Virus record (IMG/VR): IMGVR_UViG_3300025949_000022
Span: 11,104 to 75,103 of that record
Reading direction: 5' to 3' (one strand)
Length of the DNA: 64,000 bases
DNA from: a virus
Shown piece after piece: positions 28,247 to 51,153 of this stretch. How positions within the stretch are numbered: position 1 is the stretch's first letter; every line of letters begins with the position of its first letter. The notes beneath the pieces were generated by a model, which was given only the letters and a program-made list of their open reading frames with translations, was not told where the DNA came from and searched no databases. The position numbers were made by a program, and so were the translations under genes.

Positions 28247-28396
28247 TTGCTATAAAGATATAAAAAAAATAACTATCTGTATTTCTCTTTTTGCTTAGTA
28301 TATTTTTCTTAAAACATTACGGTTTCCCGTAAATAATTTTAATTTATATTTTCTATAATTGTATCGGCAATTCAGCCAAATTAAATAAGTACTAAA

Positions 28397-28840
28397 ATGC
28401 AAGAAAATGTAAAGGTATTCACACCGGAGGTATTAGTAGATATTTTCGGGGAAATTAAACCTAAGGGTGATTTTACTTACAAACTAAGAGTTGACGGCAT
28501 TAGTAGCCGTGAATTAAGAGAACTCGCACAGGTAAACATAGACTACGGGATGGACTTCAATATTAAACGCTCTGGTAAAGGGTTAGTTGTGTTTAGTCAG
28601 TCAATAGATGACCGACGAATTGTTGTGGAAAACGCTCCTACTAAACAACTATTCGTTCGTGACTTTTACGAAAGCCTACCACAAGACGCACGGATAGCAG
28701 CCTTTAACAATACGGCTAAAGTTAAATGGGATTACCCCGCTAACACTTTAACAGAAGCGCTTACAAATTCATTTTATTTTTCAGACACTCCGGAAGGTGC
28801 CAATTATTGGCAAGATGTTATTTTAGAAAATAGAAACTAA
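28397..28840 (+). CDS. Hypothetical protein, paralog of 49280..49750
   Basis: Shared MQENV, IKRS.KGL and ..RDF.E.LPQ.ARIAAF.NTAK.KW...P.GANYWQDVILEN. Confidence 0.75.
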   Translation: MQENVKVFTPEVLVDIFGEIKPKGDFTYKLRVDGISSRELRELAQVNIDYGMDFNIKRSGKGLVVFSQSIDDRRIVVENAPTKQLFVRDFYESLPQDARIAAFNNTAKVKWDYPANTLTEALTNSFYFSDTPEGANYWQDVILENRN

Positions 28841-28863
28841 CTTCTCGAATTTTTAAAGGTGAG

Positions 28864-28897
28864 GCCGATACAGTTGCGAAATTGAATCGGCTTTTTT
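28864..28897 (+). terminator. Intrinsic terminator
   Basis: GCCGAT...ATCGGC followed by T6. Confidence 0.7.
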
Positions 28898-28911
28898 ATT
28901 TATATTTGAGC

Positions 28912-29682
28912 ATGACGTTTGTAAAAGCAGCATCCGCAATACCATATACCCCATATGTAGCGCCTGAAAAAGACGATACTAAACGTTTTATGGCTAATTA
29001 CATGGCATCAAGTATGTATAAAAAGCGGCTTGCATCACAAGGTATTTATTCAACGCCCGATATACAGTCAATATTAAATGTACCAATAAATTACAACACC
29101 AAACAAGATACTCAAGCTACCATTGTTAAAAATGGCGGTCAAATTAAAAATTCAATAAACATTAATAAAAATCAATTAGCGGATGTCAAAAAAGATTTTA
29201 ACTTTCCAGTGTCCATAGATGAGGCTAAAGCACATGAATTATCACACGTATCGAGGCCATTAAGTCAGCAAGAGCAACTACTTATAGCGGGGAAGAATAA
29301 AAGTGATTTGGGATATGGCTTGTTTGCCCAATATCAAACAGATAAATCGTTAGGAAGCTATCAAGGGCAGTATGATGATTATAAAACAAATGGGATAGAT
29401 AACAGTAATGATGCTTATCACGACTATAGACCGAATGAAAATAAAGCCGATTTAGATGCTTTGCGGTTTTTAATGCAAAAAAAAGGGATTTACGATACGT
29501 CTAAAAGGGATATGACAATAGATGATTTCAATAAAGCATCCCAAGACCCTGAAATAAAAAATAGTCTTATATTCAACAGGCTTATACAGCAATTCAAACC
29601 AAAAGATATTATAAGTCTAAATAATACAGTGGCAATGAATAATGCAGCCAGTCCCCAACTATCCGCTGCCTATATGGTATAA
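28912..29682 (+). CDS. Putative zincin-like metallopeptidase/cargo protein (likely start MTFVKAA)
   Basis: AHELSH (HExxH) with downstream E..A (PNENKAD). Confidence 0.6.
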   Translation: MTFVKAASAIPYTPYVAPEKDDTKRFMANYMASSMYKKRLASQGIYSTPDIQSILNVPINYNTKQDTQATIVKNGGQIKNSININKNQLADVKKDFNFPVSIDEAKAHELSHVSRPLSQQEQLLIAGKNKSDLGYGLFAQYQTDKSLGSYQGQYDDYKTNGIDNSNDAYHDYRPNENKADLDALRFLMQKKGIYDTSKRDMTIDDFNKASQDPEIKNSLIFNRLIQQFKPKDIISLNNTVAMNNAASPQLSAAYMV

Positions 29683-47884: not shown

Positions 47885-49243
47885 TTATAGCTCAAATCCG
47901 TCTGGGAACGGTGAAATACCTTGCAAATATTCTTGCCTGTCATATTTGGCCTCGTGCCAACCAAAATCCCAATTACTATGGCTTGTTGTTGCTAATTCAT
48001 ATGGGTTTTCAGATAGTGGTTTGCCATCGGCATACGCTTCGTATCCTTCCTGTAAGGCTTCGTCGTTTTTCATCCCTCCTTCCCCTCCTGTAGATTAAGC
48101 TGGTTGAGGAAGTCGCGGAGTTGTATTGCTTCGCCTAAGCTTGCCACGATATTATCGTTATTTTGTTTGATAATAAGCGATTGATGCTCATTGAATTTTA
48201 AACTGACAGGCATTCCATCTTTTTCAAATTCTATTACTATTTCAGTTTTCATAATTTTAAGTTAGTTGTTAACGGATGGTATTATTTAAGGTGGTGGGGG
48301 TTAGTTAAGATCGATTATGTGGCGCAACTTATCAGGGCCATTAGCTTCATCGTATCTAGCTTCTAAGATTGGGAATTGCTCAAAAGCCTCGTCAACTGAA
48401 TCAGCTCTTACATTTAACCATGATGAAATATTATCGATCTGCTTTTTAAGCCCGGCAATACTTGGATAGGCCCTTAGCTTTCCGCTTTTATCCCTTGCAA
48501 TGATGTACTTTTTCATTTTAAAGTGGTTTGGTTAGTTATTTTTTTTGATGTTATGTTCTCTTACTGCCAAATCCCCATGACTTTCAGGGTCTATGGGGTA
48601 GCATACATTCACCGTTGTAGCGGCTTCGATGCTGATATTGGCAGATTGCTAAGACTTAGCATAACTTATACAGTTTCTTTACTGGCCTTTTCTAATAATT
48701 TGCCATATTGAGTACCGAGGGTGAACATGAATTTTTCGTCCGGGCTTTCAAATATAAATTCGCTTTGGTTTGGTGATAACCTATTTTTCTTTACGATAAT
48801 ATCGGCGCCGGTTTCTTCTTCAAACATTTCAATTGCTTCTGAAAGCTTGGCTGCATAATTGTTGTTGAGGGTGATAATTACTGATGAGTTCATTTTTGCT
48901 AAGTTTTAAATTGTTAATATTCTCTTTTTACTGCCTTAACCTCAAGCCTTGTGAGCGTTGAGGTGGCAGACCCTGATACGTATCAGGGCAAATCAGAGTG
49001 TTTTAATATCCCTAAGTAGGTGCCTAAATTCTATTGTCCTTCGGCTATTTGAAGTAGTAGGCTTTCGCAATGCTCATTAATATAATGCTCACACCCCTCA
49101 AACGTTTCAGGATATTCAGGCACATCTTCCCACTCTGTTTCAGCCTCATTTTCCGACCAAATACCCTGTGTGAAAGCAATAAACTGCTCGTCTGTATCAA
49201 ACTCCCATTTTTCGTTGTCAATACTTGTTACTGTTATTTTCAT
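47885..49243 (-). CDS. Array of small early genes (47885-48073, 48070-48252, 48301-48516, 48666-48893, 49031-49243)
   Basis: 60-75 aa co-oriented ORFs with A-rich starts, several acidic. Confidence 0.65.
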
Positions 49244-49279: not shown

Positions 49280-49750
49280 TTATTTGTTTTCTAAAATAAC
49301 ATCTTGCCAATAGTTAGCGCCTTGTGGTGAATCACTAATGTAAAATGATGTTAAGATGGCCTCTTCTAAATCCCTTGCTGGATTTTTCCATTTGCTCTTA
49401 GCTGTATTGTCAAACGCGGCTATCCTTGCCTCTTGTGGCAGGGCTTCAAAAAAGTCGCGCACCATTGGAATTTTCTTTGCCTGAATATCATCTGGGTCGG
49501 CATCATAATAAGAGGAATCAAGGCCTTTAGAATCCGGTTTTGGGCTAAAAAAAATAACCAGCCCTTTATCGGACCTTTTTATTAAAACATCCGACCATTG
49601 CAGTGAATTTGACACTGTCAAAACATCCCCGTTTCCCATTTCTTTGGTAAAGCACCGGATAACACCATCGGGTAGGACAGATACATTTTCAGCCCCGAAG
49701 TTTTGTACTGCGAAATCATTTGTACAAACTGCATTTACATTTTCTTGCAT
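49280..49750 (-). CDS. Hypothetical protein, paralog of 28397..28840 (likely start MQENV)
   Basis: Closely similar C-terminal ~60 aa. Confidence 0.75.
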   Translation of the reverse strand: MQENVNAVCTNDFAVQNFGAENVSVLPDGVIRCFTKEMGNGDVLTVSNSLQWSDVLIKRSDKGLVIFFSPKPDSKGLDSSYYDADPDDIQAKKIPMVRDFFEALPQEARIAAFDNTAKSKWKNPARDLEEAILTSFYISDSPQGANYWQDVILENK

Positions 49751-49778
49751 AATACATTTTTTAATTTTAATCGACATT

Positions 49779-49828
49779 GATTAAGACCGCATTAGCGGTT
49801 TCGCTGAACTACAGCTCGTCAGTTAATC
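49779..49828 (-). ncRNA. Type I hammerhead ribozyme
   Basis: GAUUAA CUGACGA GCUG-UAGUU-CAGC GAAA CCGC-UAAU-GCGG UC|UUAAUC: full catalytic core and three perfect stems. Confidence 0.93.
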
Positions 49829-49840
49829 TTTTGTGTTTAG

Positions 49841-49927
49841 TTAAATAGTTAGCAATTGATAAACTGCGAATATTAATACTATTGTTGCGATTGCGCCGAT
49901 TAGTAATGATTTGTTTAGATTTTTCAT
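49841..49927 (-). CDS. 28-aa single-TM peptide MKNLNKSLLIGAIATIVLIFAVYQLLTI
   Basis: Manual translation; first ORF after a putative promoter, just upstream of the hammerhead. Confidence 0.6.
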   Translation of the reverse strand: MKNLNKSLLIGAIATIVLIFAVYQLLTI

Positions 49928-50046
49928 GTTTGATACGTTTTTTAATTTGCCTTGATTGACGATGTAAATATAAAGCGTTAAATTATCATTTCCAAATCTT
50001 TTTTCATTTATTTTATAATTTAAGTATTTATATTTACTTTTGGCCT

Positions 50047-50310
50047 ATGAACAACAGAGTATATGGCGTGTTTGCCGCTATAATCGATAACAATATTATA
50101 GTCATAGATTTTAATCTTAAAGACTTTTATAAGCAATTTGTGAATAAATGGTCTTGCTTTGATATGAATTATCAGGCGTTATACCGGCGTTTTAAAAAGT
50201 CGGATGCCTTTGAAATGGAACTTAGCGGGGTTGTTATTCATCTCCAGTGCATCATATTGAAGCCGCAAGCAAAGAGAAAAAAAGAAATTAAGCCTCGTAC
50301 TTATAAATAA
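50047..50310 (+). CDS. Small hypothetical protein, divergent from early operon
   Basis: ORF with TATATTTA element upstream. Confidence 0.5.
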   Translation: MNNRVYGVFAAIIDNNIIVIDFNLKDFYKQFVNKWSCFDMNYQALYRRFKKSDAFEMELSGVVIHLQCIILKPQAKRKKEIKPRTYK

Positions 50311-50341
50311 AAAAGCCGGGGTTATCCTTAAGTCCCCGGCT
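50309..50341 (-). terminator. Intrinsic terminator
   Basis: A6 GCCGGGG...CCCCGGC. Confidence 0.75.
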
Positions 50342-51153
50342 CTAAATAATTTTGTTGGTTAATTATTCGGTCTGGGGTTTTCGCTTTGCGCGGGTCTTTT
50401 TGGGTGCTCCTGCGGGTTCTGATAGCTTCTTAGCCATTAAATCTAATTGCCGGGCTTGGTTATCATAAATTACTTTTTGGGCTTTAAGGGCGTTGGTTTG
50501 AAGGTCTATTTGTGCCTGGATTTCTTTGCTCTTTTTTTTGAAATCTGCCGATAGGTCTTTTAATGTCTGTACGTGATCCATTTTTTTAGTTAATAATTCT
50601 GCTTCCTCTTGTTAATTTTTTTTACGGAGTTAGTCAGTCTGTTATGGGGGTTGGTTTTGTCGCTTCATTTGCGTGGTTTTTAAGTTTTTATTTTTTTCTT
50701 TTTTGATTAGCGTGTGGATGTTATGCGACCTCAGCAAGCGAACGGTAAATATTCATTTTGCCATAAGTCCATGCGTTAGGCGTTTTTAATTGAAGCACAT
50801 AATCGTTACCGTTTTTGAAGTATTTGATTACTTTACAAACGATATATTGCCGGGATTGGTAATCTAAAACGCCGACCTTTTTTATTTGACCGGTCGTTAA
50901 TAATTCTATCGTTATGTGATTAATTACCATATCAATTAGCTTTAACCTTAAAGTACTTTAGTGATTTTAACGTTTGTTATTTCGGGAACGCCAGCGCCCT
51001 TTAAAGCAAGATTTTCGCCAAATGATAACTCAACTTTTAGCCCTCTTTGCTTTTCAGCCTCGATAATAAGCTGATTAAGGCTCTTTACGGCGTTCCTGAT
51101 ATCAGTTGCCACATCCCTATCCGATCTAATTTCTACTGCTTCCATTTTTTAAA

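Follow-up and report, generated by a model that had tools for sequence, protein, structure and literature searches.

Here we describe a complete type I hammerhead motif on the minus strand of a phage genome, at 49779-49828, which we believe with a probability of about 78%, judging from sequence, to be a genuine self-cleaving ribozyme that processes the head of a minus-strand transcript. The earlier note had read the motif in this way, and its interpretation is supported by a complete core, by a score of 61.7 bits against a covariance model built from other phage hammerheads, and by a fitting position. The motif, its uniqueness in the genome, its class membership and its position are established; transcription, cleavage and an effect on expression are inferred.

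The window, by which we mean the whole stretch of 64,000 nucleotides that was analysed, spans bases 11104-75103 of a viral contig that is complete at 75,103 bp and carries direct terminal repeats. The phage, from rhizosphere soil, has a 75-kb genome that is podophage-like and of Bacteroidota type. Distant kinship (26% identity) links its large terminase only to the terminases of phages of Flavobacterium, Cellulophaga and Tenacibaculum. Its DNA is found in rhizosphere and soil metagenomes, and nearly all of its genes lie on the minus strand. A blastn search of the hammerhead region against cultured phages gave no match. Reading along the minus strand, one passes a 72-aa gene, a terminator, an 87-aa gene in the opposite orientation and a 119-nt divergent control region before reaching the ribozyme unit, which consists of a 28-aa mini-ORF, 12 nt, the 50-nt hammerhead, 28 nt and a 156-aa gene. 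The landmarks, all on the minus strand, are as follows.

50300..50343 (-), intrinsic terminator, 10-bp G+C-rich stem plus U-tract (-17.4 kcal/mol, z -3.6)
49965..49996 (-), Bacteroidota-type promoter-like site, TTTG, 20 nt, TAtaTTTA, recognised by homology to the upstream regions of the gene family
49933..49948 (-), 16-nt leader AAATTAAAAAAYGTAT, first copy, before the mini-ORF
49841..49927 (-), mini-ORF of 28 aa (MKNLNKSLLIGAIATIVLIFAVYQLLTI) with one predicted membrane helix
49779..49828 (-), type I hammerhead ribozyme motif with an open stem I of 6 bp, found by descriptor search and by covariance model
49752..49767 (-), 16-nt leader AAATTAAAAAAYGTAT, second copy, before the 156-aa gene
49280..49750 (-), downstream 156-aa gene of the MQENV... 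family

The hammerhead is thus wholly intergenic, in a 90-nt spacer, and it sits on the coding strand, downstream of the terminator, the divergent gene and the conserved promoter/leader. The terminator stem (50343-50312) and its U-tract end the upstream minus-strand unit of the 72-aa gene. The promoter-like site rests on homology, because by itself the Bacteroidota promoter pattern is no more frequent in the window than expected (10 found against 11.5). The earlier note had placed the ATG at 49750 some 34 nt past the cut; the arithmetic is correct and the start codon is verified by homologues, since M1 and Q2 are invariant in 11 of them, which makes ATG 49750 the true start and not the upstream ATG at 49777. 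Neither the 156-aa protein nor the neighbouring small proteins have a Pfam or PHROG match. The 87-aa gene, 50047-50310 (+), encodes a basic protein without a family match; alone in its opposite orientation, it shares the divergent control region (49928-50046) with the ribozyme-bearing unit, converges on a terminator of bidirectional appearance, and its product may be a regulator of that unit.

All the defining core positions and the type I topology that the earlier note had reported are present. Read from 49828 to 49779, the minus strand gives GAUUAA / CUGACGA / GCUG-UAGUU-CAGC / GAA / A-CCGC-UAAU-GCGG-U / C, followed across the cut by UUAAUC, and its parts are these.

49816..49822 (-), core C3 to A9, CUGACGA
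49803..49815 (-), stem II hairpin GCUG-UAGUU-CAGC, 4 bp with a 5-nt loop, including the G10.1-C11.1 pair
49786..49802 (-), G12-A13-A14, then the stem III hairpin A-CCGC-UAAU-GCGG-U, 5 bp with a 4-nt loop, including the A15.1-U16.1 pair
49784..49785 (-), predicted cleavage site at the consensus position, 3' of C17, between C49785 and U49784
49829..49829 (-), unpaired A immediately 5' of stem I (81% of the class described below have A here)
49777..49778 (-), unpaired AA immediately 3' of stem I (77% of the class have A at the first position and 77% at the second)

The 5' strand of stem I begins at G49828 (G49828-AUUAA). The core has C3 U4 G5 A6 N7 G8 A9 at 49822-49816 and G12 A13 A14 at 49802-49800, and stem III runs from 49799 to 49786, closed by the pair A49799-U49786, with C49785 as the non-G nucleotide at 17. 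The pairs adjoining the core are all Watson-Crick: G49815-C49803 (10.1-11.1), A49823-U49784 (1.1-2.1) and A49799-U49786 (15.1-16.1). A published rule accepts as hammerheads those motifs in which three helices with standard pairs adjoin the core (PMC3088659), and the motif agrees with it, with stems I, II and III of 6, 4 and 5 bp; loops close stems II and III and stem I is open, which is the type I topology. The cleavage position that had been claimed, 49785/49784, is arithmetically correct and fits the consensus. As for the further claim that stem I can be extended by ACA/UGU, the extension is present on the minus strand but amounts to three weak pairs, and what the class conserves there is instead the unpaired A(-1) and AA(+1,+2). 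The class signature of A(-1), AA(+1,+2) and U...U in loop II is seen, with a G at loop position 3, and the AA at 49777..49778 is probably part of a tertiary contact with loop II. A contact between stem I and loop II is required for fast cleavage at the Mg2+ concentrations of the cell. We conclude that the motif is real, complete and rightly placed.

The hammerhead models of Rfam, which the earlier note had suggested running with Infernal, do not report it: no gathering cut-off was reached. Over the window at gathering score, a tRNA was the sole match, with no hammerhead family, and at E <= 10 RF00163 matches nothing in the genome. When a 111-nt slice was searched, hammerhead families took the two top places, both with weak scores, namely RF03152 RAGATH-1 with 24.0 bits (cut-off 56.3) and RF02275 with 15.4 bits (cut-off 52). 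As a control, the same library at gathering score was run on five phage loci (L068, L164, L126, L085 and L109), where it found 0 of about 18 clear type I hammerheads. Because the models miss all class members in the control loci, their negative result for 49779-49828 is uninformative, and the score below cut-off reflects the models more than the RNA. A covariance model of our own, CM R1, was made from 75 independent phage type I hammerheads with the element of the window left out. On 49774-49833(-) it gives 61.7 bits (E 1.6e-14) over its full length, against 13.1 bits for the runner-up in the window. Covariation counts are high on the 75-sequence alignment, but its rows had been selected for pairing, and so the reality of stem I rests on a control in which the partner strand is slid.

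The class was gathered with a loose core pattern that left stem I unspecified and that has matches in at least 120 viral contigs. Among the matches listed, 117 were distinct in raw form, and in 99 of these stem I has 4 bp or more flush with the core, with a sharp mode at exactly 6 bp; once the partner strand is slid, this holds for only 1. The class is thus real independently of the pairing filter. The matches listed comprise 156 non-redundant type I hammerheads, often several to a contig and each before a gene, and their commonest architecture (57/156), with a 6-bp stem I, a 4-bp stem II and a 5-nt loop II, is that of our element. Their flanks agree as well, with A directly 5' of stem I in 81% and AA directly 3' in 77% and 77%, and N7 is C, as here, in 60/156. 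The cut precedes the start codon by a median of 26 nt in the listed class, the distance being 20-35 nt in 86/151, and here it is 34 nt. A feature of loop II counts against the element: in the class this loop follows the pattern U-N-A-N-U, and UAGUU fits it except for the G at position 3, where 77% of the listed members have A and 5% have G. Taken as a whole, the element belongs to a very abundant class of minimal phage hammerheads in short stop-to-start spacers.

Several phages in IMG/VR (L068, L086, L097/L162, L164, L109, L010) carry arrays of 3-7 type I hammerheads, one per small gene, and Rfam 15 at gathering score reports no array hammerheads in the five control loci. A metagenome scan for the same stem II and stem III sequences found 11 hammerheads, which are of another subclass and come from phages that use Shine-Dalgarno sequences; none of the 11 is related to the cassette that holds our element. 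Around the hammerheads with an identical stem I (L085, L126, L176), tblastx found no shared genes.

Also against the element, stem I is A/U-rich, and its nearest-neighbour equilibrium probability in context is 0.002, since the model prefers a competing helix upstream and a hairpin downstream. Within the class this is about the 10th percentile, and 27% of the members fall below 0.01. The two competitors are the following.

49857..49870 (-), candidate anti-ribozyme strand in the mini-ORF, at about codons 20-24 (-11.6 kcal/mol), its function speculative
49767..49784 (-), alternative hairpin UUAAUC-AAUGUC-GAUUAA, weak (-3.0 kcal/mol)

The first of these would pair with 49815-49828, that is, with the 5' strand of stem I plus CUGACGAG, and it raises an alternative in which the 49870-49857 helix forms first during transcription and locks the hammerhead until a translating ribosome melts it, so that cutting would report translation of the mini-ORF. 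The competing duplex is indeed unusual for its place (z -3.95), since 1000 shuffles of the 60 nt upstream never reached such an energy and equally good pairing with the target occurs in only 0.27% of natural 60-nt windows on the same strand; the fold predicted in context is dominated by this duplex, and the mini-ORF and hammerhead arrived jointly as a 181-nt insert. Yet the idea was one of about four structural ideas tested post hoc, and the competing helix is not a feature of the class, where z averages +0.27 and is below -2 in 1% of 91 members. The energy model, moreover, ignores tertiary stabilisation of the ribozyme, and a single sequence allows no covariation to be seen. On balance we regard gating by translation as unlikely, and it is rather unlikely that the mini-ORF and hammerhead together make up a 181-nt translation-gated RNA switch which would free the downstream message only while the membrane peptide is being made. 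The competing helix offers a concrete candidate for translation-dependent control of a ribozyme. The downstream hairpin could cap the 5' end of the cleaved mRNA; in the class, a 5'-terminal hairpin shows weak enrichment at most (10 found, 5.3 expected). We also considered a pseudoknot in which loop II (UAGUU) would pair with an upstream AACUA and rejected it, its observed number in the class being that expected, and here P = 0.16 with one copy.

The surroundings of the hammerhead bear the marks of an insertion. The leader AAATTAAAAAAYGTAT occurs in exactly two copies in the window, and these bracket 181 nt that hold the mini-ORF and the hammerhead; the duplicated leader, together with homologues that have no ribozyme, implies that mini-ORF and hammerhead were inserted as a unit before the gene. 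The genome contains a paralogue of the 156-aa gene at 28397-28840 (+), with 53% identity over two thirds of its length, and this paralogue and two homologues from IMG/VR have in common a conserved promoter/leader that ends in ATG-CAA-GAA; the form without the insert lies at 28310-28405. At the ribozyme locus this promoter/leader ends instead with the mini-ORF's own ATG, which thereby occupies the place that the ATG of the 156-aa gene family has in the homologues. On another contig, a homologue of the 156-aa gene has the family leader directly before its ATG. As a single query in IMG/VR the 156-aa protein found no relative; the family alignment found 5 loci, 0 of them with an upstream hammerhead. 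The paralogue is itself the first gene of a two-gene island of lower G+C at 28397-29682 (+), within the minus-strand structural module.

Among relatives of the phage, the four closest near-complete ones (TerL identity 74-82%) are free of hammerheads of every type. A fifth, which is more distant (58% TerL identity), has a type III hammerhead with stems of 7/4/4 at the head of its own small-gene block. This hammerhead, at L028:1478-1526 (+), which is the same as G004:24534-24582, belongs to a 71-kb phage, is cut after CGUA and stands in a 700-nt gap free of ORFs, in which it is followed by about 115 nt of apparently structured RNA and then the next ATG; the gap has no tRNA and no Rfam match. In contigs from other soil samples, position 48939 is joined directly to 49952 by 199 unrelated bases, so that the whole cassette of mini-ORF, ribozyme, 156-aa gene and next ORF is replaced. 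With close relatives lacking the hammerhead and soil relatives lacking the cassette, this copy has no conservation or covariation of its own.

Another alternative is that the motif is a recently inserted or decaying copy that folds poorly, does little and travels as a passenger when cassettes are shuffled. In favour of this, all close relatives lack it, its cassette is replaced in soil relatives, homologues of the 156-aa gene work without it, and its predicted stem I occupancy is low. Against it, zero core or core-adjacent positions are damaged, the A/AA flanks specific to the class and the 6-bp stem I are intact, and equally low occupancy is predicted for many class members. We hold the passenger reading to be quite improbable.

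The last alternative is that 49779-49828 is a chance match to the consensus in A/T-rich intergenic DNA. Our own descriptor code covered the full 75,103 bp of the genome on both strands and all three circular permutations (types I, II and III), and 49779-49828 (-) was the single match. In a very large amount of scanned DNA rare chance matches to a short descriptor must arise somewhere, but block shuffles yield 0.01 matches per genome even at the far laxer stem lengths of 4/3/3, and the match also fits beyond its descriptor, in A(-1), AA(+1,+2) and a stem I of exactly 6 bp, and lies on the coding strand 34 nt upstream of a start codon, so that chance is a far-fetched explanation.

Returning to a working ribozyme that processes the head of the transcript, the following course of events is proposed. 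The ribozyme would emerge about 130-180 nt into the minus-strand transcription unit, where stems II and III and the 6-bp stem I would assemble around the CUGACGA/GAAA core during transcription, and the RNA would cut itself after C49785. The cut would part a head fragment of about 175 nt from the message of the 156-aa gene and the small genes behind it. Established hammerhead chemistry (PMC8782182) leaves a 2',3'-cyclic phosphate on the upstream product and a 5'-OH on the downstream one. The head fragment, made up of the leader and the 28-aa membrane-peptide ORF, would accordingly end in the stem II and stem III hairpins and a cyclic phosphate, and the downstream message would have a 5'-OH end and an A/U-rich leader fixed at 34 nt, a start that would suit a host phylum not reliant on Shine-Dalgarno pairing. 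The stability and the translation of the two parts of the transcript would then likely become independent of each other.

Further along the minus strand, downstream of the hammerhead, there are two other intergenic elements, at 48918-48992 (-) and 48551-48662 (-). Like elements occur in three related phages (L044:7432-7512(+), L041:6954-7040(-) and L035:8668-8750(-)), and their layout consists of a hairpin, UCUGCC, a variable insert and GGCAGUAAAAGA, with the next ATG about 15-40 nt further on. Homology with soil relatives stops exactly at the junction GGCAG/UAA (48563/48565 and 48935/48939), and the genes between are swapped. The two GGCAGUAA elements have no Rfam match at E <= 5, and they could be another processing or recombination signal.

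Taken alone, the element is one more unannotated phage hammerhead, real but ordinary. What gives it some value is, first, that Rfam 15 at its gathering cut-offs misses the minimal type I class, with its 6-bp stem I, A/AA flanks and position about 26 nt before a start codon, and standard annotation will for that reason keep missing such hammerheads. Second, the locus provides a natural comparison, the same gene family, promoter and leader being found with and without the insert of mini-ORF and ribozyme, and because of this the biological effect of phage hammerheads (PMC6765202) is directly testable with two short constructs.

Among the known families, RF00163 Hammerhead_1 (type I) has, by definition, a topology and core identical to those of the element, and fails to match it just as it misses the class members of the control loci at gathering score. 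RF03152 RAGATH-1 resembles it in an open stem I of 5-6 bp, an A-rich 5' flank, the core and the GUC site. The upstream hairpin of that model (positions 1-20) is unmatched here, with a 5-nt deletion and non-standard pairs, and stem II is in our case a regular 4-bp hairpin; with 24.0 bits, far under 56.3, the element is not a member of RF03152. A functional parallel may be seen in insulators of the RiboJ type, attributed to Lou et al. 2012, in which a hammerhead in the 5' UTR reportedly strips off the RNA context upstream, so that the gene is preceded by a defined 5'-OH leader and, optionally, a hairpin. RiboJ is said to be an engineered type III sTRSV ribozyme, and any insulating effect of our element is putative.

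The closest counterparts are the phage and prophage hammerheads of Perreault et al. 2011 (PMC3088659), which flank genes and cleave in vitro and in E. coli. The same paper notes a hammerhead of haloviruses HF1/HF2 whose cut site falls where the 5' end of an early polycistronic transcript has been mapped. The role proposed for phage hammerheads is the processing of polycistronic RNA (PMC3088659, PMC6765202). Our element is like those of Perreault et al. in its core, its type I topology and its intergenic place on the coding strand, and in the cutting of long transcripts into gene-length mRNAs that has been proposed for them. It differs in being a single copy, whereas the intergenic or clustered hammerheads form arrays that flank each gene, and in its absence from the closest relatives and its coupling to a 28-aa mini-ORF in a 181-nt insert. 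In kind, it is another member of a group of ribozymes that has been known since 2011.
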